32,000 nucleotides of DNA from Methanocaldococcus jannaschii DSM 2661 (GTDB taxonomy: Archaea; AGJL01; Methanococci; Methanococcales; Methanocaldococcaceae): positions 443,581 through 475,580 of the forward strand of contig NC_000909.1 of assembly GCF_000091665.1 (NCBI RefSeq), given 5' to 3'. Below are positions 9,451-30,486 of this stretch, piece by piece (the stretch's first letter is position 1; each line of letters starts with the position of its first letter). Below the pieces are notes generated by a model that was not told the origin of the DNA, made no database searches, and worked only from the letters and a program-made list of their open reading frames with translations. The position numbers and the translations under genes are program-made.

Positions 9451-9738
9451 TTTAAATATCTTCCATTTCAATTATATATAACCATAGAGGGGGCGTAGCC
9501 CCCTCTATTGGGATACTCCCCCAAATCTTGCTTGGACATTAATTGGGGCTGAAAGCCCCAACTTATAACCAATTATCAAAGAAAATATTATTTACTATGG
9601 AATTTAGAAGCCCAAAGGGCTTCTATAGTGCCTTATTTAATTAAAAACTTTGATAATTGGTTAAATGGACGTGAAGTATCCCAATAGAAGGTTTCCTCCT
9701 ATGGGAGTTAAATGTCTTCCATTTCAGTTATTATATAA
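9451..9738. repeat. palindromic modular element E1 (core 9482-9706) with flanking about 31-bp direct repeats
   Basis: The terminal inverted hairpin modules are CCATAGAGGGGGCGTAGCCCCCTCTATTGGGATAC (9482-9516) and GTATCCCAATAGAAGGTTTCCTCCTATGG (9676-9704). Module D is inside, together with a nested segment bounded by the inverted repeat AACCAATTATCAAAG / CTTTGATAATTGGTT. DR 9451-9481 and DR 9707-9738 each copy the last codons (EMEDI) plus the stop of the 9708 gene. Confidence 0.85.
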
Positions 9739-10412
9739 TTTCCTTCCTTTCCTTCAAATCCTCTAACTAAGAATGTTTTTCCATTTAATTTTAAGCAGAT
9801 TTCTCTAATTGTATCGTCAATTCCATACTCTTCAAGCATATCTAAAATTCCTGGCATAAATTGCTCTAATGTTGCTGGCGGGATGTAGCATCTTTTTGAA
9901 GATGTTCCAAAGTGTATCTTTCCAAACACCTTAATTTTTACATCTACATCTTCTGGGTCTATTTCTCCACAATTTCTGCAAATATAAACTAAACCTCTTG
10001 GTTTAATCTTAGTATCAACAATTCCTCTACATATTTTACAGTAATAATTTACAAATATTGTTGATTGTGAAACCTCCAATATGGCTGGAACTTTCACATC
10101 TAAAACTTCTCCTCTATTGTATAGTTGTTCTTTAGGAATTTCTGGAATTTCTCTTGGATATTTTACACCTTTAATAACTTTTTCAACTATTCTAACGCTC
10201 TTTTCTTCTGTTATTCTACCAAATATCTCGTAACATTTTCCTCTCTCTAAAGGAATTGTTGTTATAAAATTGGCTACTCCATCTTTATCAACCATAGTTC
10301 CAATGTAAAATATTGAACCTTCTTCACTCTCCTTCCTTCTGATATCTACAATTTTAACTTTTGTTAAAATTTGAGAATTTGGTAGTAGTGATTTTATCTT
10401 TCCTAATACCAT
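9708..10412 (-). CDS. hypothetical protein with OB-like N-domain and CxxC...CxxC zinc ribbon
   Basis: MVLGKIKSLLPNSQ... with CKICRG...CRNCGE motifs. ATG 10412 follows SD GGTGAT, and the ORF-track GTG 10421 lies in the SD. Confidence 0.7.
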   Translation of the reverse strand: MVLGKIKSLLPNSQILTKVKIVDIRRKESEEGSIFYIGTMVDKDGVANFITTIPLERGKCYEIFGRITEEKSVRIVEKVIKGVKYPREIPEIPKEQLYNRGEVLDVKVPAILEVSQSTIFVNYYCKICRGIVDTKIKPRGLVYICRNCGEIDPEDVDVKIKVFGKIHFGTSSKRCYIPPATLEQFMPGILDMLEEYGIDDTIREICLKLNGKTFLVRGFEGKEGNYIITEMEDI

Positions 10413-10544
10413 AAATATCACCTGATTATTAATTGGATTGAATTTACACCTCCGCCATAAGGCGGAGGTGTTAGGGTGTGTCCCAATAGAGGGTTTCCCC
10501 CTATGGTGGTTTTATTTTTCCCAATACCATAAAATATCACCTAA
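10398..10544. repeat. palindromic modular element E2 (core 10426-10515: module B + module A) with about 27-bp direct repeats
   Basis: Module B is AATTTACACCTCCGCCATAAGGCGGAGGTGTTAGGG (10441-10476) and module A is GTCCCAATAGAGGGTTTCCCCCTATGG (10480-10506). DRs are CTTTCCTAATACCATAAATATCACCTGA (10398-10425) and TTTTCCCAATACCATAAAATATCACCTAA (10516-10544). Each DR carries the SD, the ATG and the first 5 codons of the downstream gene. Confidence 0.85.
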
Positions 10545-10564
10545 AAAATCAATTTATTGATAAT

Positions 10565-11281
10565 TTAACTATTTATTGTTTCTTCATCAGTCTCTTCCTC
10601 TTCTTTATCCTCTTCTATCAATTCAGGAGCAACTCTTGGCAATACAACCTCATCTATAAACTTTTTATGGACAATGTATTCCTTAGGTTGAACAATTACA
10701 GGTATATCATTTAGCGTTAAAGATATTGCTTTCCTTAATTCTCCTTCCTCAGTTCTAAATTCAACAGCTCCAAATCTCACAAATCCTCTGATAAACATCC
10801 CCGTAAATATTTCTGGATTTGCTTTAATTCCAAACAGTCTCAATCTTCCCCATCCGTATCCATCAAATATTCTAAATATGGTGTAATCTTTACCCGTAGA
10901 TGTTCTTTTATGTTGAACACCTACAACAATTCCAACTATTATCCCTCTCTGAATAGGGACTCCATTAATATCCAAGTAAGTTATTCTTTCATCATCTTCG
11001 TCAATTCTTTTCAAATACTTGGCTCTACACAGAGACAATGGAATTGGAACTGCAGTTCTCATTTCTTGCCCTTTAACAACCTTCAAATCATCTAAATTTC
11101 CAACAAACCTTACATCTTTTTTTGGATATGGTTCATATATACCCAATATGCTTTCATAATCATCAGCCTTAATTTGCAAATAGATTTCCTCTAACTCCTC
11201 AACACCTTCATCAGTATAGACGGTTGAGTATCTCACAATCTCTACTCTATCATCCTCAATTTTTATCCCATATTTTACCAT
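10565..11281 (-). CDS. hypothetical protein, OB-fold-like core with acidic C-terminal tail
   Basis: MVKYGIKIEDDRVEI...GIIVGIVVGVQHKRTSTGKDYTIFRIFDGYGWGRLRLFG... ending in EEDKEEEETDEE. ATG 11281 follows SD GGTGATG. Confidence 0.7.
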   Translation of the reverse strand: MVKYGIKIEDDRVEIVRYSTVYTDEGVEELEEIYLQIKADDYESILGIYEPYPKKDVRFVGNLDDLKVVKGQEMRTAVPIPLSLCRAKYLKRIDEDDERITYLDINGVPIQRGIIVGIVVGVQHKRTSTGKDYTIFRIFDGYGWGRLRLFGIKANPEIFTGMFIRGFVRFGAVEFRTEEGELRKAISLTLNDIPVIVQPKEYIVHKKFIDEVVLPRVAPELIEEDKEEEETDEETINS

Positions 11282-11350
11282 AATCATCACCTGTAATAAT
11301 TGGTAATAATAATTTATGTGACTATATGACTATACAAATCTTTATATATG

Positions 11351-11375
11351 CCCATATATATACTTTTCGGTTAAA
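11351..11375 (-). promoter_or_regulatory. BRE/TATA promoter candidate for the 10565..11281 gene
   Basis: The minus strand reads TTTAACCGAAAAGTATATATATGGG, about 70 nt upstream of ATG 11281. It is nearly identical to the motif at 7156..7136. Confidence 0.5.
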
Positions 11376-11553
11376 CCAACTTGATGCTAAAAAAAAATCA
11401 ATACTTAATATAAAAACAGAAATCTCAATAGATTCATCAAAAATAGCTTAAAAATAAATTTATTATTGGGACTTCTGCAGTTTATATATCAACTTTGGAA
11501 TTTAGATGCCTAAAAGACATTAATTTCCTTTAAAGATTTATTCTTGTATTATA

Positions 11554-12306
11554 TTATTTCTTTTCCCACATCTTTATGGCATTAGTTGGACATACATCTA
11601 CACATCTTCCACACAATATGCACTTATCCTTATTAATCTTAACTTTATCTCCATCTTGATCAATTGCGTTGATAGGACATTCTTCAATACAAACTAAACA
11701 TCCAACACATAGATTTTTATCAACTTCAATGTCTCTGGTTTTTATTACCTCTCCAAGCTCTCTCTCAACCTTTATACATTTTTTTGGGCAGACCTCAGCA
11801 CAAGCACCACAACCCATACATAAATCTAAATTAACCTCAATGCTCTTTCTTCTAACTGCCTTTATAGCATTTGTTGGACAGAATCTTGCACAAATTCCGC
11901 ATTTTATGCAAGTATTTTCATCAAGCTCATATTTTTTTAACCTAATCTTTCTGTGAGGGATTGATTTTTCTTTTATTGTATAATGAACTTCGCTATCTTC
12001 AATCTCTGCCCTTCCCTCTATAACATATATTGCTCCAACAGGGCATGTTTGGGCACAAATTTCACATTTAACACATTTATCTTCAATTATCTTTGCAGAT
12101 TTTTTAACCTTCGCTTTTTCAATTGCATCTACTGGGCATTCTTTGTAGCAAAGATTGCATCTAATACATTTAGTTTCGTTGATATATAACAATTTATAAG
12201 TTATGGGAGTTATTTTTTTGGCTACCTCATTAATATACTTTTTATCCCCATCTATCTTTGATAATATCTCATCCAATGACTTTTTTATCTCAATCAATGT
12301 AATCAC
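11554..12306 (-). CDS. polyferredoxin, six CxxCxxCxxxCP motifs (third ferredoxin gene of the eha cluster)
   Basis: Motifs: CIRCNLCYKECP, CVKCEICAQTCP, CIKCGICARFCP, CMGCGACAEVCP, CVGCLVCIEECP, CILCGRCVDVCP. Confidence 0.85.
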   Translation of the reverse strand: MITLIEIKKSLDEILSKIDGDKKYINEVAKKITPITYKLLYINETKCIRCNLCYKECPVDAIEKAKVKKSAKIIEDKCVKCEICAQTCPVGAIYVIEGRAEIEDSEVHYTIKEKSIPHRKIRLKKYELDENTCIKCGICARFCPTNAIKAVRRKSIEVNLDLCMGCGACAEVCPKKCIKVERELGEVIKTRDIEVDKNLCVGCLVCIEECPINAIDQDGDKVKINKDKCILCGRCVDVCPTNAIKMWEKK

Positions 12307-12349
12307 CTTTCAATGCAAACTATTATGACTTTTTATGAAATAGTATTTC

Positions 12350-12841
12350 TTATCGTAATATTATAGCATTTAACGGGCAAATTTCTTCACACTTTCCACA
12401 AAGCTCACACTTATTTATATCAATCCTTATTTTACTTCCATATTCTTCAATAGCATTAAATGGGCAATTCCTTAAACAAACTAAGCAAGATGCACATCTC
12501 TCACTTATATAATCAATAAATTCATACTTATCTACTTCAATAATCCTTGCATCTTCGTTAATTTCGCATCTCAATCTTATTATTACAATTGCATTTGTTG
12601 GACAAACTTTTTTGCATTTTCCACAAAACACACATTTTTCTTTATTAATAGTTATATATAACCCATCACTACTGTAGGTTATTGCATTCACTGGGCAGAT
12701 TTCAATACATTTTCCACAGCTAATGCATTTATCCTCTTTAACGATAATCTCTCTTTTATTTAAAATAATATTAAATTTTGGGAGTAATTGGATATTTTTA
12801 TCAGCTAAATTGAAATGTTTAGCTATTATTTCCTTTATCAT
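12350..12841 (-). CDS. polyferredoxin, four CxxCxxCxxxCP motifs
   Basis: Motifs: CISCGKCIEICP, CVFCGKCKKVCP, CASCLVCLRNCP, CELCGKCEEICP. The start overlaps the end of the upstream gene by 23 nt. Confidence 0.85.
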   Translation of the reverse strand: MIKEIIAKHFNLADKNIQLLPKFNIILNKREIIVKEDKCISCGKCIEICPVNAITYSSDGLYITINKEKCVFCGKCKKVCPTNAIVIIRLRCEINEDARIIEVDKYEFIDYISERCASCLVCLRNCPFNAIEEYGSKIRIDINKCELCGKCEEICPLNAIILR

Positions 12842-14036
12842 ACAGCTCCCTCTTTTTTTCCATTATTCTTTTATTTTCTTCATAAACTCTCCTTTTTAGC
12901 TCTTCTTTCAACTTTTTGAGGGATAACTTTTCAATCTCTTCTTTAACCTTTCCATACTTCTCAGTGTATAAGACTAAATCCTTCTCAATGCTCTCAATTA
13001 TCTTATCCTCTATTATTCTAACTTTAACCGCCTCTTCTGCCTCTTCTGGCTTAACAACTTTTATAGCTCCAACAGGACATTCTCTTGCGCATGCTCCTCC
13101 TCTAACACACAACTCTGGAACAATATATGGTAGTTTTGTCTCTTTGCTAATTTTAATAGCCCCTGACCCACACACTTTCTGACAAATTCTACAGCCAATA
13201 CACAAATCCTCATCAATAACGTAGCAAATATCCTTCCTCTTTGGTATAATTGGTTTATAAATCCTTATTGCAGTAGTTGAACAAACTTCTATACATAAAC
13301 CACACTTTACGCACTCAACAACCTTTTTTTCATTTAAATCAATCTCTCCTACGCATACATCTTTACATATTCCACAACTTACACACAAGCCACTAACAAT
13401 ATGTGGAATTTTTTCAATAACGTTCTCCTTAATTTCCAACTTCCCAGTAATTTTTTTATTTTTAATTTCAAAGGCTTTATCTATCTTCTCTTTCAATGTT
13501 TTTTCATCAACAACAACTATTGCATTCTCTATAGGACAAACTTTGATACATTCTTTACAAGAAATACATAAAGCCATATTTATTACATATTTCCCTTCTT
13601 TACGCTCAATTACATTGATTGGGCAAGCTCTTTCGCAATTTCCACATCTAACACAGACTTCCTCGTCAATTATAAGATTGCTATATTTAGGTTTATCAAA
13701 AAATAAGCCCTCTGTCTCAACCCTATGCTTATCCATCTCTAAAACTCCTGTTGGACAAACTTCAATACAGTTGGCACATGCTACACAAGAACCTTCATCA
13801 ATCACTGGAAGTTTTTTGTTATACTCTTCGTTGTATATCATTTCAATTGCAAAGGCTGGACAACTTTCCTTACAACCTTCACAGGATATACATTTCTCAG
13901 GAAATTTAACAATTGGAGGTATTTTTCTATATCTTTCTGGAGGAATATAGGAGCTTTTATCTGATTTTGCATCAATAAATCTTTTAATCCACTTTTTTCT
14001 TGCAAATTCATAAAGATACCATAGCGAAGATGCCAT
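12819..14036 (-). CDS. ehaP: polyferredoxin with eight cluster motifs (one degenerate) and a charged coiled-coil-like tail
   Basis: Seven CxxCxxCxxxC motifs plus CVRGGACARECP. ATG 14036 follows SD GGTGA, which contains the ehaO stop codon. The gene symbol is assigned by position after ehaO only. Confidence 0.8.
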   Translation of the reverse strand: MASSLWYLYEFARKKWIKRFIDAKSDKSSYIPPERYRKIPPIVKFPEKCISCEGCKESCPAFAIEMIYNEEYNKKLPVIDEGSCVACANCIEVCPTGVLEMDKHRVETEGLFFDKPKYSNLIIDEEVCVRCGNCERACPINVIERKEGKYVINMALCISCKECIKVCPIENAIVVVDEKTLKEKIDKAFEIKNKKITGKLEIKENVIEKIPHIVSGLCVSCGICKDVCVGEIDLNEKKVVECVKCGLCIEVCSTTAIRIYKPIIPKRKDICYVIDEDLCIGCRICQKVCGSGAIKISKETKLPYIVPELCVRGGACARECPVGAIKVVKPEEAEEAVKVRIIEDKIIESIEKDLVLYTEKYGKVKEEIEKLSLKKLKEELKRRVYEENKRIMEKKRELYDKGNNS

Positions 14037-14041
14037 AACAA

Positions 14042-15184: not shown

Positions 15185-15623
15185 CTTTATTTTTTAATCT
15201 CTTTTCTCTCATTGCTATTGCCTTAGGAGCTACCTTTAAGATTGTTTCAATAATCTCAGAAGGTCTTGGAGGACATCCAGGGATTTTTGCATCTACAGGA
15301 ATAACTTTATCAACTCCTCCAACAACATGTCCTTCCTTAAAAATCCCTCCACTCAATGCACAAGCTCCAACAGCAACAACTATCTTTGGTTCTGGTGTTT
15401 TTTCATAAATCTCCTTTAATCTCTCTGCCCATTGTAAAGTTACTGGCCCTGTAACTAATAAAACATCCGCTTCTCTTGGGTTATTATGGACGTAAATCCC
15501 ATACTGCTCAATATCGTATCTTGGAGCTAAGCAGGCAACTATCTCAATATCGCATCCATTACAACCCCCAGTATTGACAACACAAACATGTATTGACCTT
15601 TTTCTGAATAATTCTTTCATCAT
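15177..15623 (-). CDS. ehaN: energy-converting hydrogenase A small subunit (NuoB-like)
   Basis: [17 protein letters not shown] and IPGCPPRP motifs. The ATGATG start at 15623 follows SD GGAGG. Confidence 0.9.
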
Positions 15624-15746
15624 GGCTATTCCTCCCAATAAATTTTAAGAGGCATTGCTTCTTTGCAGAAGCAATGCATCCTGGGTATCCCAATAGGGCG
15701 AAGCCCTATGGTTTCTGAATAATTCTTTCATCATGGCTATTCCTCC
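15601..15746. repeat. palindromic modular element E3 (core 15636-15711: module C + module A) with perfect 35-bp direct repeats
   Basis: TTTCTGAATAATTCTTTCATCATGGCTATTCCTCC occurs at both 15601-15635 and 15712-15746 (35/35 identical by eye). The core contains GAGGCATTGCTTCTTTGCAGAAGCAATGCATC and GTATCCCAATAGGGCGAAGCCCTATGG. Confidence 0.9.
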
Positions 15747-16150: not shown

Positions 16151-16152
16151 AA

Positions 16153-16437: not shown

Positions 16438-16448
16438 GATTTCACCAT

Positions 16449-16694
16449 TTACACAGGAATGTAGAGTTTATAAATTGCATATGCAAAGAAAGCTAAAACT
16501 AAGAGCATAAATAAAACCTCAATATCTTCCATTTTATGGGCTATTTTTTTGTTTATGGTTGAGATTGTTAATATCAAGATTAAGCTAAATGCTAAAACTA
16601 CTGGAATGACATTTATTTGCAATAGATTAACCAATACACAATAAATCACGGCAATAATGCATGCAATTGTAAAGAAATAAATGTAGCTTTTCAT
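16449..16694 (-). CDS. ehaK: Eha small integral membrane subunit
   Basis: [18 protein letters not shown]..., about 3 TM helices. ATG 16694 follows SD GGTGG. Confidence 0.65.
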
Positions 16695-16914
16695 TTTATC
16701 CACCCACTGTTAGTCTGTATAAGACCCATAGAGGGGCTTCGCCCCTCTATTGGGATACTCCCCAAATCTTACTAATTTACACCTCCGAGCGTAAGCGAGG
16801 AGGTGTTAGGTTTTGGTGAAGCTTTTACTAAAAGGTTCATCCCAATAGGGGGTTTCCCCTATGGATACAATGTAGCTTTTCATTTTATCCACCCACTATT
16901 AATCGATATAGGAC
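16680..16914. repeat. palindromic modular element E4, full-length composite (core 16726-16868: A + B + E + inverted A) with 46-bp direct repeats
   Basis: The left terminal copy of module A, CCATAGAGGGGCTTCGCCCCTCTATTGGGATAC (16726-16758), is inverted relative to the right terminal copy, CATCCCAATAGGGGGTTTCCCCTATGG (16838-16864). Module B is at 16774-16810. DR 16680-16725 versus 16869-16914 is 41/46 identical. The DR covers the ehaJ C-terminus and stop (VLYRL[I/T]VGG*) plus the ehaK SD, ATG and first 4 codons. Confidence 0.9.
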
Positions 16915-17763
16915 ATCACACAATACAAGTCCAGCAATTGTCATTTGAAGCATGACTGAATGATGAGGAGCTAATAATGGTGTTAATCCATTAACAAATG
17001 CTAAAATCACTGTCATTACAACCATTACAGCCAATGTTAATACAGGGCTGTTTATTACTAAAGGACCAATAAATACAGCTATAAAGAGCCAGAGCAATAC
17101 AAAGTATGCTATTGCCTCTGCAATGTAGATTATAGCCCCTAATAAACCATAATGCTCTGTCATATATCCGCTAACAATATCTTTACCCTTAACTATCCCA
17201 AATGGACTGTTTGGAGCTTTTGAAACAAGCAATATAAAGAATGCGAATGCACAAATTGGCATTTTAAACAATAAACTGCCGTGTATTTCTTGATAACTCA
17301 ATATATCTGAAATTAAAACTGAATGTGTTGTTAAGTATATGGCAGCAACAACTGCAAATAATGGCACTTCTGCAGCTGCTGAAAAGACACTTCTAACCCC
17401 TCCTATCTTTCCATAAGGAGACCCAGATGACAAACCACAACCATGCTCCACTATTTTTTGCAATACATAGATTCCTATAATTATAAGGAGGGATGACTTG
17501 AAATCAATAGCTATAATTAATGCAGCTAACCAAATAGCAATATCCAATAAAGCTACAAATATATAGAGAGGATTTCCAGCAGTTATTGGGAAAGTTATTT
17601 CCTTTACATAGAATTTTAGTGTATGCAATAGATATTGGATTATTGGAGGTCCTGGTCTTCCTTGAATCCTTGCCATTATTTTTCTATGTAATCCAAGTAA
17701 CAGAGAACCAACAAGAAATGCATGGATTGTTAAGTTTATAGCTCCGATAAGTGAAGTATCCAT
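16885..17763 (-). CDS. ehaJ: Eha membrane subunit, NuoH/HycD-like
   Basis: About 292-aa polytopic membrane protein with an RPGPPIIQ-type loop typical of the NuoH/HycD family. ATG 17763 follows SD GGGTGA. Confidence 0.8.
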   Translation of the reverse strand: MDTSLIGAINLTIHAFLVGSLLLGLHRKIMARIQGRPGPPIIQYLLHTLKFYVKEITFPITAGNPLYIFVALLDIAIWLAALIIAIDFKSSLLIIIGIYVLQKIVEHGCGLSSGSPYGKIGGVRSVFSAAAEVPLFAVVAAIYLTTHSVLISDILSYQEIHGSLLFKMPICAFAFFILLVSKAPNSPFGIVKGKDIVSGYMTEHYGLLGAIIYIAEAIAYFVLLWLFIAVFIGPLVINSPVLTLAVMVVMTVILAFVNGLTPLLAPHHSVMLQMTIAGLVLCDVLYRLIVGG

Positions 17764-17953
17764 AAGCATCACCCAGATTTTATCAGTTGTAAATTTACAC
17801 TTCCGAGCGAAGCGAGGAGGTGTTAGTTTTTGATGAAATGGAGAGCTATGCTTTCCAGCTATGAAAACTCTAAGAGTTTTCGTTCAACTTTTTCTAAAAG
17901 TTTCGTTTATAGTCCCTATCAGTGAAGTATCCATATCCTCACCCAGATTTTTA
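17746..17953. repeat. palindromic modular element E5 (core 17784-17916: module B + AT-richer hairpins + truncated A end) with about 38-bp direct repeats
   Basis: Module B is AATTTACACTTCCGAGCGAAGCGAGGAGGTGTTAG (17792-17826). Hairpins are GAAAACTCTAAGAGTTTTC and AACTTTTTCTAAAAGTTT. DR GATAAGTGAAGTATCCATAAGCATCACCCAGATTTTAT (17746-17783) pairs with TATCAGTGAAGTATCCATATCCTCACCCAGATTTTTAT (17917-17953). Each DR carries the SD, ATG and first 6 codons of ehaJ. Confidence 0.85.
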
Positions 17954-17964
17954 TTTTAATATTT

Positions 17965-18184: not shown

Positions 18185-18841
18185 TTAAATTGTCAATAGA
18201 ATCTCAACAGTCCTTACAATCAACAACAGTGAGGAGAGGTGTATCATCAATATGTATGGTGAGCCAGGAGCTCTAAACATCTCCGCCTTTGCAGCATAGA
18301 AGGGAGCTATCCCAGTTTCTCCAGCCATTCCAGCGGCAAATATAATTTTTTCAAATAATAGGGATGTTTGTATTTTTGGCAGTTCAAAGATTGATAATGT
18401 CCCTGTTTTAGCCAATATCATCCCTGCAGAACCAAATAATGGAAGGGTGGCAATCATCGCTATAAGTCCATACTGATAACTTGCATTTAACACCCATTCT
18501 CTTTTAACTGCTGAGACAATACCTATATTTGCAATCCCAACTAAAGTTAAGAATAAGGCATAATCAAACAAATCATAAGTTAGCATAGCTCCAGCAGTTG
18601 CTATTCCGCAGACAATAGCCATCATTCTCCTAATTTTTAACTCATTTAGTGTTACTACCTCTAATTTATCTTCAATTTTAAATTTTTGAGCTTCTAACTG
18701 CTTTTCTGGCTTTGTTAAATAAACTATGATGGTAAATATTACTGCAGTGATAAATCCAATAATTGAAAATTCTGAAAAGCCAAATACAATGTCTCCAAAT
18801 GGAACAATTCCAAATAGATAGCCAGTTATTGATTCAATCAT
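18185..18841 (-). CDS. ehaH: Eha integral membrane subunit
   Basis: 218-aa polytopic membrane protein. Named by operon position. Confidence 0.7.
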   Translation of the reverse strand: MIESITGYLFGIVPFGDIVFGFSEFSIIGFITAVIFTIIVYLTKPEKQLEAQKFKIEDKLEVVTLNELKIRRMMAIVCGIATAGAMLTYDLFDYALFLTLVGIANIGIVSAVKREWVLNASYQYGLIAMIATLPLFGSAGMILAKTGTLSIFELPKIQTSLLFEKIIFAAGMAGETGIAPFYAAKAEMFRAPGSPYILMIHLSSLLLIVRTVEILLTI

Positions 18842-18968
18842 TTTATCTCACCTAATTTTATTAAATAATGGACATTAATTAGGGCTGAAAGCCCTAACTT
18901 AATGGACGGGTGGTATAGCAATAGGAGGTCTCCTCCTATGCTTTGTCAATCATCTTACCTCACCTATA
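18835..18968. repeat. palindromic modular element E6 (core 18857-18946: module D + degenerate module A) with 22-bp direct repeats
   Basis: Module D is GGACATTAATTAGGGCTGAAAGCCCTAACTTAATGGACG, and module A is GTATAGCAATAGGAGGTCTCCTCCTATG (18913-18940). DR CAATCATTTTATCTCACCTAAT (18835-18856) pairs with CAATCATCTTACCTCACCTATA (18947-18968). The DR is the ehaG-stop / ehaH-start ATGA overlap with its SD. Confidence 0.85.
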
Positions 18969-19654: not shown

Positions 19655-20116
19655 CTAATCCTTGTTGAAGAATAACCAGCTAAATATTATGAACGATATT
19701 AGCAGTATAGAACTTTCAAGCACTGTATCCATTCCTCTTGTATAGTATAGGATTTCATCCAATATTCCTCCAGGTGTTGAGACTATTGTTGTCCCAAAGT
19801 AGTAGGTTTTATCTTTAATCCATTCAGCTATTGGAGTTAGATAGGCAGTTATCTTTCCAAGATTAGGTTCATATTGTGGATATTGAGCTTTTAACTCTGC
19901 AGGTTCTTTTAATGGAATCCCTCCTCTATCATAAGGTGCTAATGGTGTTTTTAGTGTTTGAGAGTGAGGAATTGGTTTTGGATAAAGTTGATTGGGATTT
20001 AAGTAATGAGGCATCAATAACCCAAATATAAAGACTAAAGCTAAGAATACAGAGAATATTCTTGGGACAATTTCTGGCTTTGATAAATAGTTCCATATTT
20101 TACCAAGTTTTTTCAT
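19655..20116 (-). CDS. ehaF: Eha membrane-anchored subunit
   Basis: [34 protein letters not shown]... with TM helices at the N and C termini. ATG 20116 follows SD GAGGTGGG. Confidence 0.7.
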
Positions 20117-20253
20117 TATTACCCACCTCAAATTTTTCCAAACAAATTAATCAAAATTAATTTACACCTCCGAGCGTAAGCGAGGAGGTGTTAGGGTGTA
20201 TCCCAATAGAGGGTTTCCCTCTATGGTTTCCAAGTTTTTTCATTATTTCCCCC
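20101..20253. repeat. palindromic modular element E7 (core 20128-20226: module B + module A) with about 26-bp direct repeats
   Basis: Module B is AATTTACACCTCCGAGCGTAAGCGAGGAGGTGTTAGGG (20159-20196) and module A is GTATCCCAATAGAGGGTTTCCCTCTATGG (20198-20226). DR TACCAAGTTTTTTCATTATTACCCACC (20101-20127) pairs with TTCCAAGTTTTTTCATTATTTCCCCC (20228-20253). Each DR carries the SD, ATG and first 5 codons of ehaF. Confidence 0.88.
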
Positions 20254-20254
20254 T

Positions 20255-21828: not shown

Positions 21829-21833
21829 CACTC

Positions 21834-21960
21834 TCACCAGCAATGAATTATTATACACCATAGGGCTTCGCCCTATTGGGATACCCAGAGCGGGGCTTCA
21901 CTACGTTCAGCCCCACTTTCTTTTATTTCCCTGATTTACCAGCAATGAATTATAACACAA
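21834..21960. repeat. palindromic modular element E8 (core about 21859-21935: module A + a unique hairpin) with about 25-bp direct repeats
   Basis: Module A is CCATAGGGCTTCGCCCTATTGGGATAC (21858-21884), followed by hairpin GCGGGGCTTCACTACGTTCAGCCCCAC. DR TCACCAGCAATGAATTATTATACAC (21834-21858) pairs with TTACCAGCAATGAATTATAACACAA (21936-21960). Each DR carries the last codons (IHCW) plus the stop of the HTH gene. Confidence 0.85.
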
Positions 21961-22634
21961 TCTTTATTTATTGAATAAATTGGTGGAACTTCATCTTTTG
22001 GAAATACTTGGATGATAACCTTCTTCCCAGTTTTTTTCATGAATTTTTTTTCTAATCTCCTAATATCTGAGCAATCTAAGAATATCTCAACATATTTATT
22101 GTCAAGATGTTTTCCTATGACTTTTATTCTCCCTCTTGATAGTTCTATCCTCTCAATATCCATAACTTCTAACCTACTTCTCATCTCATTTAATAAGTTC
22201 TCCTTACTTATTATTAATACAGGGTAGTTTTCAATTAACCTAAGATACCCCTTATCACCTTTTTCAATAATTTCAGATACAAATTCTGCAAAAGTATCTT
22301 CAAACTTTAAAAGGGAGAGTGCATCTAAAAGTTCAATTATTGGATTTTCAACATTGTTTGAGGAGAAACATTTTAATAAACCAAGAGTTACAGCAGTTGC
22401 TATAAGTTTAGTTGCTGGTCTTTTTCCTTTCTCTAACATGCTGAGATGAGATTGACTAATTCCACTTTCTTTAGCTAATTTTGATTGGGTAATTTTTAAT
22501 TTTTCTCTAAAAGCCTGGATATATTGAGGATTTAATAGTATTGCCCTTTCAATAATCTCTAATTTTTTATACATGTTCTCACGAAATTGATATTTGATAT
22601 CTACCAAATAAATTAGGAAAACATATTCCGCCAT
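21936..22634 (-). CDS. XRE-type helix-turn-helix protein with an uncharacterised C-terminal domain
   Basis: The HTH is [28 protein letters not shown]. The start is uncertain: ATG 22634, or ATG 22574 ([11 protein letters not shown]...). Confidence 0.75.
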
Positions 22635-23363: not shown

Positions 23364-23583
23364 AAAATAATGGCTCAGTTCGGGTAAGTATCATCACAGT
23401 TCAGCTAACCCTCTTTTCATCATTGCCATATTTATATATATTTTCAAAATTAATGATTTTTATTAGGAGTTAATAGGGTTTATATGTGTATTATCATGTT
23501 GATAATCACTAATGAAAAAGGTTTTTATTTTATTGGCACTTAAATATTATATACTAAATTCAATAATAAGAAATGGTGAAAAC

Positions 23584-24024: not shown

Positions 24025-24026
24025 AA

Positions 24027-25384: not shown

Positions 25385-25547
25385 TCTATGCTGTTAATCA
25401 AACTAAAACATTTATAAAGATTACTTAGTTGTTATTTTACTTAAATTAACATTGGACATTTATTATATATTACTATCGCCAGAATATTTAATGTTGTAAT
25501 CTTTAGAGTTTTGGGTTCTTATAATTAATATTTTTGTGGTGAAATAT

Positions 25548-26711: not shown

Positions 26712-26745
26712 CTACTTATTATAATATATAAACTGCGGAGTCCTA

Positions 26746-27765
26746 TTAAAAAATATCCAAATACTCCCCAATTATCTTTTTAACATTTTTAACCATTGAT
26801 TTAACTTCATTAGAATTAATAACTGTATAATCCTCTAAATTATCCAACACATCTTTAGCATCAACATATCCATCTAAAAATGCTGGTGGAGCATACTTTA
26901 AACCTATACTGTATCCTCCTTCTAAAACTGCTGTAACACTATATCCGCTTAGCTTAGCTCCTACAAATCTATAAAATGTTTCAGTTAAGTCCATACTTGC
27001 AAGGCCATCATTTATAAATGCATCAAAACCTGCAGAAACTAAAACAGTATCTGGACTAAAGTAATTTAAAATTGGCTCAACAATCTCATTCCATGCAAAT
27101 ATATAATCAGCATCAGTTGAATGTGCTGGGAAAGGAAGATTTATTTTAGTCCCTTTTGCCTCTTCTCCTCCAATATCTAATATATCTCCAGTTCCTGGAT
27201 AGATGCCTCTTTGGTGGAAATCTATATGAATAACTCTATTATCATTCCAGAAGATTTCTTGAGTGCCGTTTCCATGATGCACATCAAAATCAATTATTAT
27301 GACTTTTTTCATATAATTTTTAGCTAATCTTGCAGCTCCTGCTATATTATTAAATATGCAAAAACCGTTTGACATTGCTCCTAAAGCCCTTCCAGAAATT
27401 CCAGCATGATGTCCTGGAGGTCTTGTTAATGCAAAGTATAAATCCCTATCTTTTAATGCTAATTTTACAGCTTCTTTTGCCAATTTAAAGGCAGTTAATG
27501 CTGCGTCTAAGGTTCTATCACAGAGATATGTATCACCATCATAATAGTTAAATGATTTGCTTAGATTTATAATTGAATATACATAATCTCTACTATGAAT
27601 CTCTAAAATCTCATTAATTGTAGATTTTCCTTCAATTAAAACTATATCATCAAAGCCATTAGATTTTAAGCTGTTTAAAATGGTTAAAACTCTCTCTGGA
27701 TTTTCAACATGGTAGGATTTTGGTTTATGCCCTAAAACCTCTGGATTGTATAAAATTTTTGGCAT
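26746..27765 (-). CDS. histone deacetylase / acetoin utilisation (AcuC) / acetylpolyamine amidohydrolase family protein
   Basis: RPPGHHA and DFDVHHGNGTQEIF motifs, then EGGY near the C-terminus. ATG 27765 (MPKILYNPE). Confidence 0.85.
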   Translation of the reverse strand: MPKILYNPEVLGHKPKSYHVENPERVLTILNSLKSNGFDDIVLIEGKSTINEILEIHSRDYVYSIINLSKSFNYYDGDTYLCDRTLDAALTAFKLAKEAVKLALKDRDLYFALTRPPGHHAGISGRALGAMSNGFCIFNNIAGAARLAKNYMKKVIIIDFDVHHGNGTQEIFWNDNRVIHIDFHQRGIYPGTGDILDIGGEEAKGTKINLPFPAHSTDADYIFAWNEIVEPILNYFSPDTVLVSAGFDAFINDGLASMDLTETFYRFVGAKLSGYSVTAVLEGGYSIGLKYAPPAFLDGYVDAKDVLDNLEDYTVINSNEVKSMVKNVKKIIGEYLDIF

Positions 27766-27855
27766 AATGGACACCAAAAAATAGGTTTTTAGTTTAATAT
27801 TTCTCTTTTGGGATATAAAAAATTATTTAGGATATTTTAGAGTGGATAAAAAAGA

Positions 27856-28106
27856 GTTTTTGATACAATATTGTTCTTCTTAAACACGAAATATAGGGTT
27901 GGACAAAAATCGTGGAAAAAGAGAGGAGGTGACTATGATGGGTTTCCATACAATACTGTTCTCCTTAAACAATTTTAGAGATTAGGGGGGAGCCGCCCTC
28001 ACACCTCCCGTTTCCATACAACAATGTTCTTCTTAAACAGACTATCAGATGTAACCGATATTATCGATAAACGTTTAGTTTCCATACAACAATGTTCTTC
28101 TTAAAC
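27856..28106 (-). CRISPR. orphan mini-CRISPR array, 4 repeats and 3 spacers
   Basis: Plus-strand repeats: 27856-27885 GTTTTTGATACAATATTGTTCTTCTTAAAC (degenerate), 27942-27970 GTTTCCATACAATACTGTTCTCCTTAAAC, 28010-28038 and 28078-28106 GTTTCCATACAACAATGTTCTTCTTAAAC. Spacers are 56, 39 and 39 nt. The minus-strand repeat GTTTAAGAAGAACATTGTTGTATGGAAAC ends in GAAAC, and the degenerate repeat is distal to the AT-rich leader on the right. Confidence 0.85.
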
Positions 28107-28695
28107 CCTTTATATTTAGATATATTATAACTAATATTTATACTTTACTATTTAAAATTATTAATAACCAATATTAACATTCAATAAAAACCTTTTATTT
28201 TATCTAATAAATTAACAAAAAACCTCTAATCAAATAATAACCTAAAAATCATATCTTACATCTAAAAAATCTCCCCTATTCATTCAAATCTAAATTTTGA
28301 GTAATACTTTTTTAGTGATAATGATTATTTCAACCAAATAGAGAATTTTTAACTAATAAAATTTAAAATTTTCATTTAAAAATCTTTAAAATCAAAATCT
28401 GATAATGTAATCATTGGATAAATTTTTATCAATTTTTCATATACAAATAAAACATATAAAACCAAAACTATAGAAATCTATTTTTTAATTATCTAAAATT
28501 TCAAAAGTTTTTATTAGTTTTACTCAATTTTAAAGATTATTTTTATAACTCCGATTATTTGATTCTATAAAATTATCTCCATAATAAAATCTTTCATAAA
28601 ATCCCTTTAAATTAAAAAAATCTCAAAAATTAGAAAGTTTTTTATTAAAATAATAATTTTCTATTTGTAGTCCATAAAATCAAATATTCAGATAC
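28107..28695 (-). promoter_or_regulatory. CRISPR leader (about 590 bp, ORF-free, very AT-rich)
   Basis: There is no ORF in any frame. The region abuts the best-conserved repeat, with TATA-like TTATAATATAT / AAATATAAAGG just upstream (minus sense) of the first repeat. Confidence 0.6.
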
Positions 28696-28831
28696 TTACA
28701 ATTTTCCAGCAACTTCATAACCCTTACTAACCATAGGGCTTCGCCCTATTGGGATACCTGGATGCATTGCTTCTTTACAGAAGCAATGCCTCTTCTTTAT
28801 AACTCCTTTGCAACTTCATATCCCTTACTAA
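28696..28831. repeat. palindromic modular element E9 (core 28731-28796: module A + module C) with 25-35-bp direct repeats
   Basis: Module A is CCATAGGGCTTCGCCCTATTGGGATAC (28731-28757), followed by GATGCATTGCTTCTTTACAGAAGCAATGCCTC. It is the reverse complement of the E3 core. DR 28706-28730 CCAGCAACTTCATAACCCTTACTAA pairs with 28806-28830 TTTGCAACTTCATATCCCTTACTAA. Weaker similarity extends to include both stop codons. Confidence 0.85.
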
Positions 28832-29339
28832 ATGCCAATAAGTTTTTCTCTTCAGTTCCCTTTGGAACACTATCTAAAATTGCCTTTTCCATACTTTCCT
28901 TTGAAACAATATTTGTTAATCTTGTTAAAGCTCCTAACATAACTATATTTGCAACAATTGGAAGTTTTATCTCCTCTGATGCAATCCTTGTAAATGGGAT
29001 TTTATACATCGTTACATCAACTTCTGGCATTTTATCTGTTGAAACTAAATCCTCATCAACCAATACAACTCCTCCCTCTTTAATATCATCCTTATACTTA
29101 TCATAAGCCTGCTGTGATAAACAAACCAATATATCCGGCTTTATAACCTTTGGGAAGTCAATTGGCTCATCACTGATAACAACCTCTGACTTACTTGCCC
29201 CCCCTCTTGCTTCCGGCCCATAAGACTGTGTTTGAACTGCCTCTTTATTGTCATACAATGCTGCTGCCCTCCCTAAAATAACTCCAGCCAAAATAATTCC
29301 CTGCCCACCAAATCCAGAGAGTCTTATCTCTTTTCTCAT
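28797..29339 (-). CDS. korG: 2-oxoacid:ferredoxin oxidoreductase gamma subunit (2-oxoglutarate type likely)
   Basis: MRKEIRLSGFGGQGIILAGVILGRAAA... is the typical gamma-subunit N-terminus. SD GGAGGG precedes ATG 29339. Confidence 0.8.
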   Translation of the reverse strand: MRKEIRLSGFGGQGIILAGVILGRAAALYDNKEAVQTQSYGPEARGGASKSEVVISDEPIDFPKVIKPDILVCLSQQAYDKYKDDIKEGGVVLVDEDLVSTDKMPEVDVTMYKIPFTRIASEEIKLPIVANIVMLGALTRLTNIVSKESMEKAILDSVPKGTEEKNLLAFSKGYEVAKEL

Positions 29340-29352
29340 CTTAACCCTCCTT

Positions 29353-30165
29353 TTATTCACTCTTTAACTTCTCAATCAACTTATGCAATTCCTCAACAAA
29401 CTCTGGTTTCTCTATATCTAAAAACTCACCAACAACAATTTTTCCATTCAACTCCTCTTCACTCATATCCTTAGCTTTATTTAAGTGTATTGAGTTCTCT
29501 TTTAAGAATTTAATCATATCAGCTGGCTTTCTTGAGATGTTGAATCTTCCATAGTATGTTGGACATTGAGAGACAACCTCAATAAACGCAAATCCTTTCT
29601 TTTGAATACCCTTCTTAATTGACCTAACAAGCTGAATTGGATGAGCTGTTGTCCATCTTGCTACATAAGTAGCTCCTGCCGCAATCGCCATTTTACACAA
29701 ATCCATAGTATTTTCTATACTACCATAAGGTGCTGTTGTTGCCTTTTTACCATAAGGTGTTGTTGGTGAAACTTGCCCCCCAGTCATTCCATAGATATTA
29801 TTGTTTATACAGATGACAGTTAAATCTATGTTTCTTCTGCATCCATGGATGAAGTGATTTCCACCTATAGCTGCCAAATCTCCGTCCCCAGTAAATACAA
29901 CAACATGTTTATCTGGTCTTGCTATTTTAATTCCTGTTGCAAACGCTATAGGTCTTCCGTGGGTTGTGTGTAAGGAATCACAGTATAAATAACCAGGAAC
30001 TCTTGAAGAACAACCTATACCTGAAACAGCTATATAGTCCTCTGGCTTTATATTTAGCTCTTCAATAGCCTTTAAAAAGCAATTCATAACAATTCCATTT
30101 CCACATCCAGAACAGAAGATGTGTGGCAATCTATCTTGCCTCATGTATTTTAAAGCTGGATGCAA
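29353..30165 (-). CDS. korB: 2-oxoacid:ferredoxin oxidoreductase beta (TPP-binding) subunit (2-oxoglutarate type likely)
   Basis: FCSGCGNG, SGIGCSSR and GDGDLAAIGGNHFIH motifs. The TTG start at 30165 lies 4 nt after GGTGG; ATG 30144 is an alternative. Confidence 0.8.
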   Translation of the reverse strand: MHPALKYMRQDRLPHIFCSGCGNGIVMNCFLKAIEELNIKPEDYIAVSGIGCSSRVPGYLYCDSLHTTHGRPIAFATGIKIARPDKHVVVFTGDGDLAAIGGNHFIHGCRRNIDLTVICINNNIYGMTGGQVSPTTPYGKKATTAPYGSIENTMDLCKMAIAAGATYVARWTTAHPIQLVRSIKKGIQKKGFAFIEVVSQCPTYYGRFNISRKPADMIKFLKENSIHLNKAKDMSEEELNGKIVVGEFLDIEKPEFVEELHKLIEKLKSE

Positions 30166-30246
30166 TTTACCACCTCAAATAATTTTTAATTTATAATGGA
30201 TACCCCAAATAGAGATAGAGTTAAGCCCTATTTTAATCAAACGAAC

Positions 30247-30486
30247 TCATCTCCTCATAACTACCGCATGGCTAAGCTCAAACATTGCTCCCAACCTTTT
30301 AGTAAAAGGTTACTCGAACAACCTTTTAGAAAAGGTTGATCAAAACTTAGTTAAATAGGTATCCCAATAGGGCGAAGCTATGGTGCGTTGATCAAAACAG
30401 ATGCATTACCTCGCTACGCTCGGTAATGCCTCTTAGCATAGCTATTTCCTCATAATTACGGCATGGCTAAGTTCGAACATAGCTCC
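30247..30486. repeat. palindromic modular element E10 (core 30292-30440: two E hairpins + decayed module A + chimeric C/B hairpin) with 45-bp direct repeats
   Basis: Hairpins are AACCTTTTAGTAAAAGGTT and AACCTTTTAGAAAAGGTT. Module A is GTATCCCAATAGGGCGAAGCTATGG (30359-30383), followed by GATGCATTACCTCGCTACGCTCGGTAATGCCTC. DR 30247-30291 versus 30442-30486 is 37/45 identical. Both DR copies still read GAMFELSHAV[V/I]MR[R/K]*. Confidence 0.85.

Follow-up and report, generated by a model that had tools for sequence, protein, structure and literature searches.

Long, variable target duplications flank hairpin inserts at gene junctions of Methanocaldococcus jannaschii

The ten hairpin inserts in the 32,000-nucleotide stretch of Methanocaldococcus jannaschii DSM 2661 analysed here (the window; contig NC_000909.1, positions 443,581 to 475,580) are best explained, at a probability of roughly 0.55, as members of a genus-wide Methanocaldococcus family of non-autonomous mobile hairpin repeats, possibly copied in by host repair or replicative synthesis. 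Insertion copies a long and variable stretch of target, of ~12 to 94 bp; the head of the element is joined exactly at a hairpin foot, 20-90 nt within a gene, and its tail at the outer edge of the same gene, either just 5' of the SD or 0-13 nt beyond the stop. Small GC-rich hairpin repeats have entered the tightest junctions of an essential operon in this way, with the neighbours kept intact by the copying of 21-48 bp (elsewhere up to 94 bp). The family is probably of the MJRE class; neither MJRE1-3 nor duplication in this context is mentioned in the literature searched, to which Suyama et al. (2005) itself did not belong.

Each unit is built from two hairpins, head and tail, and a short AT-rich tail. 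The head hairpin is either of type A (CCATAG-stem-loop-stem-CTATTGGGATAC, with a bulged T) or of type E, and the tail hairpin is of type B, C, D or others. The end opposite CCATAG, which an earlier note on this DNA had called fuzzy, is in fact this second hairpin followed by 0-35 nt of AT-rich sequence that differs from copy to copy, conservation ending at ...GCCTCTT in module C or ...GTGTAAATT in module B. Our recount of modules inside the inserts (A 11, B 4, C 3 including one variant, D 2, E ~4) agrees with the earlier one, against shuffled-sequence expectations of <=0.05 for modules A-D and 0.15 for E; CTATTGGGATAC, with <=2 mismatches allowed, has 14 matches where 2.8 are expected. The inserts fold into strings of hairpins (fold z-scores -2.6 to -6.9), and 25 of the 25 distinct inner stems are self-complementary between invariant feet, with double compensatory changes (GGGC/GCCC, GAGG/CCTC, GGAG/CTCC, AGGGGC/GCCCCT, GAC/GTC); the hairpin is therefore the selected unit. 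Inserts measure 43-250 bp. A single A end is present in eight of the ten window inserts and in the majority of the wider set described below, while E1 and E4 are double-headed, with A modules inverted at both ends, and several contigs share a conserved A-B-A' composite. Mosaic elements result from nesting and from hairpin deletion.

All ten inserts described in the earlier note are present, each between direct repeats of local sequence of 21-48 bp (77-100% identity). Local-alignment scores of their flanks are 34-70, against a mean of 15.9 and a 95th percentile of 22 for 2471 pseudo-inserts placed at random in the window, and a second, independent repeat finder recovered nine of the ten repeat pairs. 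No ORF spans any insert, and both neighbouring genes are left intact by the duplication, as had been claimed. Judged by Pfam and NCBIfam matches, the surrounding gene set is the eha operon, with EhaA, EhaL, DUF2105/2106, NuoH-, NuoB- and NuoD-like subunits and polyferredoxins as members; the elements lie co-transcribed inside operons, in both orientations.

Insert E1 (9482-9704, 223 bp) lies between repeats at 9449-9481 and 9705-9738 (33/34 bp, 30/34 identical) that hold the last 8 codons, the stop and 3 further nt of gene 9708-10421 (-), the right copy being functional. Module A at 9482 and an inverted A ending at 9704 enclose module D, within which a 98-bp MITE (9566..9663) with terminal inverted repeats TAACCAATTATCAAAG / CTTTGATAATTGGTTA and TA/TTA flanks is nested; module D is uninterrupted in E6, and the same E1-type composite occurs in L084 and L075. 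This nested MITE is a mobile element of another kind than the hairpin inserts. At the other end of the same gene, E2 (-) (10424-10505, 82 bp, A+B; repeats 10388-10423 and 10506-10542, 36/37 bp, 33/37 identical) duplicated the SD, ATG and 8 codons, its head lying against the decoy copy (right on the + strand) and its tail against the functional one. In E3 (-) (15636-15711, 76 bp, A+C; repeats 15601-15635 and 15712-15746, 35 bp, 35/35 identical) the segment comprises the ATG and 7 codons of the NuoB-like EhaN gene, plus an SD that encloses the upstream gene's stop (TAG). The double-headed E4 (16726-16868, 143 bp; A, B, E, inverted A) is flanked at 16680-16725 and 16869-16914 by 46 bp (41/46 identical) spanning the NuoH-like gene's 7 C-terminal codons and stop together with the next gene's SD, ATG and 5 codons. 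E5 (-) (17782-17904, 123 bp; repeats 17734-17781 and 17905-17951, 47/48 bp, 41/48 identical) carries an E-type head hairpin, two more hairpins and a B tail hairpin, and copied the SD, ATG and 10 codons of the NuoH-like gene 16885-17772. E6 (-) (18855-18945, 91 bp, A+D; repeats 18834-18854 and 18946-18966, 21 bp, 19/21 identical) occupies an ATGA stop/start overlap. For E7 (-) (20128-20226, 99 bp, A+B; repeats 20100-20127 and 20227-20254, 28 bp, 24/28 identical) the duplicated segment is the SD, ATG and 5 codons of the DUF2106 gene, with the upstream gene's stop just outside it.

The last three inserts copied 3' gene ends. E8 (+) (21858-21935, 78 bp, A plus an unnamed hairpin; repeats 21834-21857 and 21936-21959, 24 bp, 21/24 identical) duplicated the stop of gene 21936-22634 and the 7 codons that precede it, a segment that overlaps the ehaA SD, and its tail abuts the stop codon. 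E9 (+) (28731-28796, 66 bp, A+C; repeats 28696-28730 and 28797-28831, 35 bp, 27/35 identical) did so with the stop and the 10-11 codons before it in the 2-oxoacid:ferredoxin oxidoreductase gamma gene 28797-29360 (-). E10 (+) (30292-30440, 149 bp; repeats 30246-30291 and 30441-30486, 46 bp, 39/46 identical) copied the final 14 codons, together with the stop, of gene 30442-31224 (-), a member of Pfam family MJ0538. Its head is formed by two E hairpins and its tail by a C-like hairpin with CTCTTAGCATA; between them, 12-bp direct repeats GTTGATCAAAAC (30335-30346 and 30387-30398) surround an inverted, truncated A (30335..30398, -), as if a further insertion had nested here, in non-coding DNA, and made a short duplication.

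Nine of the ten junctions (E1-E9) are empty in related Methanocaldococcus with the segment in single copy, and junctions are likewise single-copy in the outgroup M. indicus (L006, L007); the duplications therefore arose with the inserts, which bears out the earlier reading of the flank repeats as target duplications. Empty sites were found for E1 in L002 and L003, E2 in L001 and L003, E3 in L002, L016, L006 and L007, E4 in L001, L003, L004 and L016, E5 in L002, L006 and L007, E6 in L001, L002 and L006, E7 in L001 and L002, E8 in L001, L002, L003 and L005, and E9 in L001. Elsewhere the same junctions are occupied. The E3 insert has orthologues in L001, L004 and L005, and L003 carries an independent, inverted insert there; E4 is common to the window and L002, with shared derived changes and the same ends, lacking B and E in L002, and it is missing from L001, which is 94.5% identical to L002. 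At the E5 junction, L001 and L004 hold inserts with the head junction 9 nt deeper in, and L003 keeps the duplication with its hairpins gone, best read as a deletion footprint since the junction holds elements in three relatives. L003 and L004 share the ends of E6, with other modules nested within, and at the E9 stop codon the duplication is 35 bp in the window, 54 bp in L024 and ~57 bp in L002, its outer edge constant and its inner edge different. The absence of E4 from L001 and the states of E3 and E5 in L003 show precise element loss and junction reuse. As the clearly old E3 has identical duplications (concerted evolution), repeat identity is unable to date these events.

Beyond the window we assembled 47 non-redundant CCATAG hairpins from genomes and vent metagenomes. 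An abutting flank repeat accompanies 35 of the 47, against 2-3 of 47 in controls. Both outcomes that the earlier note had named as refuting its reading, copies elsewhere without flank duplications and empty sites already holding two copies, were looked for, and neither was observed. The 33 duplications measured run continuously over a ~4-fold range, from 22 to 94 bp (median 41), and the gap between repeat and CCATAG is zero in 27 and 3-6 nt in six; at the E4 site of L002 the gap is a GTAT extension of the element's own stem, and the other five look like filler. No CC/CCA microhomology was found at the head junction, the next two bases at empty sites being simply A/T (25/27 each). The earlier note held that the repeat is always a functional gene end; across the wider sample a gene edge lies inside the duplication in only roughly 70-80%.

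The two junctions differ in a manner that the earlier note missed: the tail lies against the cistron edge, the head falls within the gene, and it is on the tail side that the gene stays intact (tail side only in ~14 events, head side only in 1). The outer edge of the stop codon has a mean fractional position of 0.14 along the duplication (p<1e-5 vs uniform), and typically lies 0-13 nt from the tail edge (of the exceptions, two lie beyond the repeat by 11-12 nt and two are at 20 and 45 nt); in single-headed cases the SD is -3 to +5 nt from the tail-side edge, which falls 8-17 nt upstream of start codons. In a genome of which 88% is coding, the gene-end overlaps would largely be what selection spares among duplications this long, so such overlap alone is not evidence of targeting. 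There is good support for the view that only insertions with an edge-spanning duplication survive in this compact genome, which would account both for the resemblance of the repeats to functional gene ends and for the persistence of elements in overlapping eha junctions. Selection accounts for the inclusion of gene ends, but not for the closeness of the tail to the gene edge. A constant-hazard template-switch model expects equal spread on either side of that edge, whereas we observe ~40 nt inside against ~5 nt outside, even where the outside is coding, at operon junctions; something specific occurs at the cistron edge, beyond the present model.

Judged purely on junction anatomy, the copies may derive from host break-repair or replicative synthesis, and not from a cut-and-paste transposase; no intermediate, donor-recipient pair or enzyme was seen. 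A break would occur at the inner point, and repair synthesis would proceed outward as far as the gene edge, there changing template, by microhomology at a boundary motif, to the tail of a donor element located beside another gene. Copying would then run from tail to head until halted by snap-back of the new hairpin, whose end would be joined to the other end of the break. In the closest alternative version, synthesis would be primed at the target and templated by an RNA or single-stranded DNA copy.

Ordinary transposase-driven MITEs, for which an IS-encoded enzyme would read module A as a terminal inverted repeat, cut with a wide, loose stagger and leave single-headed copies by one-ended events, seem unlikely to us. 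The double-headed E1 and E4 do resemble ordinary terminal-inverted-repeat MITEs and could be transposase products; the recurrent A-B-A' composite fits too, as does the invariant foot with its bulged T, since the hairpins of IS200/IS605 and REP (repetitive extragenic palindrome) elements are bound by transposase. IS200/IS605-type enzymes, however, make no target duplication. Most copies have one A end, duplication lengths differ at the same site, and a two-strand-cutting synaptic complex leaves both the tail at the cistron edge and the 0-35 nt variable end unexplained. Variable duplications do have a precedent in the YPAL elements of Yersinia (PMC2229807). The IS200/IS605 type is the only TnpA-Y1 class reported in Archaea (PMC6006769), and 706 kb of low-GC loci, which are fragments of genomes, contained no HUH-Y1 transposase motif. 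Searches of viral contigs, plasmids and Rfam gave no true viral, plasmid or Rfam match.

An RNA-mediated, SINE-like insertion is less probable again. The template, copied into DNA at a cistron-edge nick, would be either element RNA whose 5' end is processed at CCAUAG and whose 3' tail is AU-rich, or such RNA joined to a cleaved mRNA end; the second strand would be cut at a variable distance. Target-primed reverse transcription, as known from LINEs and SINEs, leaves as its signature long duplications of variable length, a precise 5' end and a 3' tail that is A/T-rich and variable, and the inserts share it; their co-transcription within operons, in both orientations, also favours this reading. 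Zhang and Olsen reportedly found in 2009 that M. jannaschii mRNAs are cleaved 12-16 nt upstream of AUG, the distance at which tail edges precede starts. Against this, we know of no reverse transcriptase in Methanocaldococcus, the 3'-end cases require antisense element RNA or undocumented cleavage right after stops, and neither an Rfam family nor promoter evidence indicates small-RNA genes. We regard as very improbable a Cas1- or casposase-like integrase that inserts hairpin DNA and duplicates its target as CRISPR repeats are duplicated, which the earlier note had offered as speculation. Duplication scale overlaps CRISPR repeat length, a CRISPR array adjoins E9, and in five metagenome contigs an A-D element sits at the trailer end of an array, flanked on one side by a repeat that breaks off at ...GGTCTGAATT|CCATAG and on the other by a degenerate one. 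The latter is the same in all five, and two share the same nested MITE, so these copies represent one propagated ancestral event, not five. Ruler-type integrases leave a fixed duplication (repeat length for Cas1-Cas2, 14-15 bp for casposons), and a fixed ruler is disfavoured by lengths that are continuous and differ at the E9 gene end; elements 43-250 bp long are also unlike spacers. That the repeats are chance similarities, or tandem junction duplications that pre-dated the hairpins, is next to inconceivable. Short spurious repeats do arise in AT-rich sequence, and L003 has an E5 duplication that lacks hairpins, but that is best read as a deletion footprint, flank scores lie far above the null, the gap at CCATAG is zero in 27 of 33 cases, and the single copy at every empty orthologous site, outgroups included, refutes the proposal.

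Repair-type copy-in or target-primed synthesis would fit these junctions best. Like the hairpin inserts, YPAL elements have variable duplications, of 3-26 bp where the 33 duplications measured here have 22-94 bp; CRISPR Cas1-Cas2 and casposons produce a fixed duplication, in contrast to this continuous range, and insertion in this manner has been described for no known prokaryotic mobile element.

All ten hairpin inserts described in the earlier note (E1 to E10) are present in the window sequence and, as it had claimed, lie between direct repeats of local sequence; the repeats are 21-48 bp long and 77-100% identical. The insert flanks reach alignment scores of 34-70, compared with a mean of 15.9 and a 95th percentile of 22 among 2471 pseudo-inserts placed at random in the window, and nine of the ten repeat pairs were recovered by an independent repeat finder. 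The proposed vocabulary of hairpin modules is likewise real: module A is represented by 11 copies, B by four, C by three, D by two and E by about four, while shuffled sequences contain practically none, and module matches within the window are confined to the ten inserts, bar two weak matches to E. The inserts fold as chains of hairpins (z-scores -2.6 to -6.9). In the wider sample, inserts measure 43-257 bp leaving aside two CRISPR-adjacent alignments, and none contains an ORF running through it. Minus-strand genes from ~21861 down to ~11554 encode EhaA, EhaL, DUF2105/2106, NuoH-, NuoB- and NuoD-like subunits and polyferredoxins, a set that identifies the eha energy-converting hydrogenase operon; an MJ0538-family gene (Pfam) occupies 30442-31224, and the C/D-box small RNA sR3 (Rfam RF01133, 52 bits) lies on the minus strand at 23373-23427.

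The exactly joined end of the element, its head, forms a hairpin whose foot is invariant, CCATAG paired to CTATTGG with one bulged T. For the inner stem above this foot we count 25 different sequences, all self-complementary and with double compensatory changes; conservation there applies to the fold and not to the sequence. An E-type hairpin takes the head position in E5 and E10. The head is followed by a tail hairpin of type B, C, D or further types, and conservation of the tail stops at ...GTGTAAATT (B) or ...GCCTCTT (C), after which come 0-35 nt of AT-rich, copy-specific sequence. The stems of module B (10447-10470, 16780-16805, 17798-17822 and 20165-20190) are CACCTCC/GGAGGTG, an anti-Shine-Dalgarno paired with a perfect Shine-Dalgarno (SD) sequence, and in E2, E5 and E7 the B hairpin lies directly upstream of the gene's real ribosome-binding site. 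In the window, only E1 and E4 have an A module at either end, the two inverted relative to each other; the other eight inserts pair a hairpin at one end with AT-rich sequence at the other. Mosaics arise via nesting and hairpin loss; the E3 element lacks its C hairpin in Methanocaldococcus sp. 16A (locus L001) and houses another element in locus L004, and E4 lacks B and E in Methanocaldococcus sp. 28A (L002). The interior of E10 carries an inverted A between 12-bp repeats, and module D of E1 is split by a 98-bp MITE (9566-9663) with 16-bp terminal inverted repeats (TAACCAATTATCAAAG) and TA/TTA flanks, which is a different, conventional element travelling with the composite. At the E9-equivalent site of L002 (1264-1534), a GC-rich and apparently structured insert of ~270 bp occupies the loop of module A, and has no Rfam match beyond a chance one.

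Scanning species-representative genomes with the NuoH-like (EhaJ-like) protein gave 16 syntenic loci, from a comparison set that excludes the complete M. jannaschii genome, M. fervens and M. vulcanius. Identity across shared genes is 94.5% between L001 and L002 and 90.6% between L003 and L004; the window shares ~84% with each of these pairs, ~78% with L005 and L016 and 72% with M. indicus (L006), and Methanothermococcus is more distant. The BLAST segments that flank an insert overlap in a genome lacking it by the length of the repeat (21-47 bp), and, for E1-E9, which this comparison covers, reading the junctions of the empty genomes finds the duplicated segment in single copy. Such empty sites were found for E1 in L002 and L003; for E2 in L001 and L003; for E3 in L002, L016, L006 and L007; for E4 in L001, L003, L004 and L016; for E5 in L002, L006 and L007; for E6 in L001, L002 and L006; for E7 in L001 and L002; for E8 in L001, L002, L003 and L005; and for E9 in L001. 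As the segment is single in the outgroups, one copy is the ancestral state and the duplications arose with the inserts. The contrary case raised in the earlier note, of empty sites already holding both copies, was encountered neither in relatives nor in outgroups. No comparable inserts were found in the Methanothermococcus and M. indicus loci, and overlaps flagged there were rejected as low-complexity AT runs.

The association extends beyond the window. A metagenome scan with the pattern CCATAG N8-18 CTATTGGGATAC returned 120 stretches, of which some 52 proved to be true hairpins on low-GC contigs; the sampled loci contain 69 head hairpins, and metagenome, window and genome loci together furnish 47 that are non-redundant. 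A direct repeat abuts CCATAG in 35 of these 47, compared with two and three of 47 in two types of control. Measured with wider search windows, 33 duplications span 22-94 bp (median 41), and the repeat touches CCATAG with zero gap in 27. Gaps of 3-6 nt separate the two in the other six, one of which (the E4 site of L002) is the element's own GTAT stem extension; the remaining gaps look like filler.

Several elements have CRISPR neighbours. Three CRISPR-DR42 repeats (GTTTCCATACAACAATGTTCTTCTTAAAC) and one degenerate repeat form an array at 27857-28106 (plus strand), to the right of which an AT-rich leader of ~600 bp extends to ~28690; the CRISPR block of ~1 kb (27783-28795) is directly beside E9, and is missing at this locus in Methanocaldococcus sp. 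16A and 28A. A long intergenic region holds three degenerate copies of a second CRISPR repeat type (7339-7507, ~70 bp apart; compare ATTTCCATACCGAAACGGTCTGATTTTAAC), which look like a decayed mini-array. On five metagenome contigs (L134, L087, L090, L084 and L075), an element composed of modules A and D lies at the trailer end of a CRISPR array, flanked on one side by a repeat that breaks off at ...GGTCTGAATT|CCATAG and on the other by a half-degenerate repeat. The same degenerate repeat occurs in all five contigs and the nested MITE of E1 in two, which suggests that the arrays, or their trailers, were propagated along with the element.

When every element is oriented with its head to the left, three rules describe the junctions. 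The intact gene is on the tail side of the element (rule 1): the gene edge falls in the tail-side copy only in ~14 events, in the head-side copy only in one, and in both in ~9 (operon junctions), a 14:1 bias with a two-sided binomial probability of ~0.001. The tail-side end of the duplication is close against the outer edge of the cistron (rule 2). At gene ends, the outer edge of the stop codon lies at a mean fractional position of 0.14 along the repeat (p<1e-5 vs uniform), with 13 of 17 offsets within -2 to +13 nt, two edges 11-12 nt outside the repeat and two deeper, at 20 and 45 nt; at gene starts with a single-headed element, the offset between the tail-side repeat edge and the beginning of the SD is -3 to +5 nt, which places the beginning of the repeat 8-17 nt upstream of the start codon. 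The head-side end of the duplication lies 20-90 nt within coding sequence (rule 3), and bases 1 and 2 of the empty site after the head junction are each A/T in 25 of 27 cases; no microhomology to CCATAG was seen at this junction. The three rules hold in all eight single-headed window inserts. One outer edge can be combined with varying inner edges, as at the stop of the 2-oxoacid:ferredoxin oxidoreductase gamma gene, where the duplication is 35 bp in the window, 54 bp in L024 and ~57 bp in L002, and L001 is empty; similarly, the E5 head junction is offset by 9 nt between the window and L001/L004. At the E3 junction, L003 carries an inverted insert whose tail lies 4 nt past the upstream stop. 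In four metagenome loci (L018, L033, L051 and L123) the stop codon is 11-13 nt outside the duplication, in the element tail or an inverted head, and the C-terminus of the protein is consequently slightly new.

Gene starts at the inserts are easily misplaced. Mechanical calling set ORF starts (TTG, GTG, or ATG within CTATGG) inside inserts or at their edges, at 15638, 20131, 21861, 10421 and 17772, instead of at the true starts of the affected genes, which are the SD-ATG of the duplicated segment. Head-adjacent repeat copies present decoy SD-ATG starts that open short ORFs into the hairpins. A relay ORF, in which translation from a decoy start reads through to the real SD, is described for mycobacterial MIRUs; we rejected this idea here, as the decoy ORFs stop variably, some of them within CCATAG.

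The inserts also turn over. The E4 elements of the window and L002 have identical ends and, within the non-functional half of one of the repeat copies, derived changes in common, marking one old event; L001, the close sister of L002, is empty at this site, which indicates, from sequence comparison, a precise loss of E4, presumably by recombination between the repeat copies. E3 is common to the window, L001, L004 and L005, with the same tail, and its repeat copies resemble each other within a genome more than they resemble their orthologues; they thus evolve in concert, and repeat identity is no clock. At the E5-equivalent site of L003 (5608-5744), two diverged copies of the SD-ATG segment are separated by an AT-rich spacer only, hairpins being absent, and this is likely the footprint of an element loss that left the duplication behind.

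Given long duplications and a genome that is ~88% coding, an interval lying wholly within a gene destroys that gene, and the survivors are insertions whose duplicated interval spans a gene edge or sits between genes. The proposition that the repeat is always a functional gene end can therefore be recast largely as survivorship, which also explains why overlapping junctions can be occupied. Rules 1 and 2, on the other hand, are not accounted for by survivorship. Were the process symmetric, the gene would lie equally often on either side, and the overshoot outside the gene would equal the reach inside; instead, the repeat reaches ~5 nt outside the gene edge and ~40 nt inside, even where the outside is coding sequence of the upstream gene. 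Erosion of a longer duplication is an unlikely cause of this sharp tail-side edge, since the pseudo-copy is full-length and an extension of 75% identity would align; in old inserts it is less improbable, because the repeat copies evolve in concert. The pattern is that of a specific or homology-guided junction at the cistron edge combined with an exact, position-free junction at the hairpin foot, and two such unlike junctions are expected from an uncoupled two-step process. The length spread, the one-ended anatomy and the sequence variability at one of the junctions all tell against a fixed-stagger transposase complex. A Cas1 integrase of the ruler type is a still poorer match: the comparison with CRISPR-type (Cas1-Cas2) integration, which the earlier note had offered as speculation, and likewise with casposons, fails on fixed length, as duplications run continuously from 22 to 94 bp and measure 35, 54 and ~57 bp at one gene end. 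No related autonomous IS sharing these ends turned up in the window, in 706 kb of low-GC loci, in viral contigs or in plasmids; the low-GC loci also contain no HUH-Y1 motif (a weak negative), viral contigs gave ten matches to the head-hairpin pattern with no hairpin and none in a low-GC archaeal context, and the plasmid collection held no match to E3. In Rfam, at gathering and permissive thresholds and across the window and L002, the modules match no family, hits being limited to CRISPR-DR42, sR3 and a chance match to GA-cis.

We favour copy-in during host break repair, a mechanism inferred from the junctions. M. jannaschii is polyploid, and a break arising inside a gene could be followed by outward synthesis templated by a sister chromosome; at an SD or stop context, synthesis would switch into the tail of an element lying beside the SD or stop of another gene, and would copy onward through that element to its head, where the new GC-rich hairpin might fold and release the strand, whose end would then be joined to the other end of the break. 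Copy-in would explain why the duplications are long and variable, why tails differ between copies, why filler occasionally appears, how mosaics form and why no enzyme signal was seen. The same anatomy is expected from target-primed synthesis that uses an RNA or single-stranded DNA copy, and this alternative has some support: its hallmarks of variable duplication length, an exact 5' end and a variable A/T-rich 3' tail are all present, and the start of the repeat 8-17 nt upstream of the AUG matches the 12-16 nt at which Zhang and Olsen reportedly found M. jannaschii mRNAs to be cleaved in 2009. The tightness of rule 2 is explained by neither model. The most far-reaching reading, tentative and with a probability of roughly 0.3, is of an undescribed form of DNA mobility in Methanocaldococcus, in which GC-rich hairpin modules would reach new sites through a copying process that begins at cistron edges, perhaps via microhomology of SD/stop contexts, mRNA ends or ribosome-bounded structures, and 20-90 bp of the adjacent gene would be re-synthesised so that the insert brings a spare gene end. 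This mobility would operate without a dedicated transposase and be reversible by recombination between the two copies, and its product may spread as a circle to orthologous empty sites.

Selfish or semi-selfish DNA can settle harmlessly even where a compact genome is most constrained, including stop/start overlaps in an essential 20-gene hydrogenase operon, since the insertion itself supplies a spare junction. Three junction features, namely an exactly joined hairpin foot within the gene, a loose AT-rich end against the cistron edge and duplications of 22-94 bp, can be tested as fingerprints of a pathway for integration or repair in a hyperthermophilic, polyploid archaeon that is not known to have classical end-joining. 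Decoy SD/ATG starts, changed C-termini and stable hairpins in polycistronic mRNAs all result from the inserts, which may tune subunit ratios; they mislead gene callers, and their presence or absence at fixed junctions is usable as a strain marker. A mechanism that proved to be transposase-free or guided by cistron ends would raise the rank of the finding.

Among known systems, the inserts very probably belong to the class MJRE1-3, some 140 GC-rich palindromic repeats that Suyama, Lathe and Bork reportedly described in 2005 in the extragenic DNA of M. jannaschii, with a few inside genes; the likeness lies in the organism and in the GC-rich palindromic form. In the literature accessible to us, a scope outside which the 2005 MJRE paper falls, we found no 20-90 bp flanking duplications, empty sites, head/tail polarity or cistron-edge rule. 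Like MITEs, the inserts are small, non-coding and multi-copy; terminal inverted repeats at both ends are nevertheless restricted to E1 and E4 in the window, and in place of a fixed short duplication, repeats span 21-48 bp among the window inserts and 22-94 bp across the wider set, differing at one gene end. The GC clusters of yeast mitochondria are also mobile GC-rich palindromes in very AT-rich DNA, with duplications of 2-3 bp only, and MIRUs are small repeats that likewise occupy intercistronic operon gaps, as tandem minisatellites with overlapping small ORFs. Integrative elements at tRNA-gene att sites and free-standing homing-endonuclease genes (in fungal mitochondrial atp6 and cox) duplicate a gene 3' end, and similarly yield two copies of the terminus, a whole gene and a leftover pseudo-end; they carry their own copy of one specific target, whereas the inserts duplicate local sequence at each site. 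Non-LTR retroelements and SINEs likewise have a 5' end that is exact and a 3' tail that is variable and A/T-rich, and an uncoupled second-strand break gives them target duplications that are long and of variable length. Both are eukaryotic, RNA-based and partnered by a reverse transcriptase, and the likeness of the Methanocaldococcus inserts to them is one of anatomy.

In form, the inserts come close to REP/BIME sequences, with short imperfect palindromes, a conserved foot and variable stems (25 inner stems between invariant CCATAG and CTATTGG), assembled into modular mosaics. REPs and BIMEs lie between cistrons and near stop codons, and GTAG REPs can supply a TAG stop (PMC3733652; PMC12306157). 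REPs bear a GTAG/CGTC tag and go with RAYT transposases (PMC3733652), a class not found in Archaea, from which only IS200-type TnpA is reported (PMC6006769); the insert foot CCATAG (GTATCC on the other strand) resembles, but is not, that tag. In these two broad surveys of REPs, one of them covering two Methanocaldococcus genomes, the word stem 'duplicat' does not occur (PMC3733652; PMC12306157). The nearest precedent for variable duplications is YPAL/RU-2 of Yersinia, a small palindromic repeat that is not AT-rich, targets sites near dyad symmetries, has duplications of 3-26 bp and shows filled and empty sites between species (PMC2229807), with no gene-end preservation or polarity described. 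Palindromic repeats of this kind are already known, and their form resembles REP/BIME mosaics; the long gene-end duplications, the proof from empty sites, the polarity and edge rules, and precise loss appear to be new.
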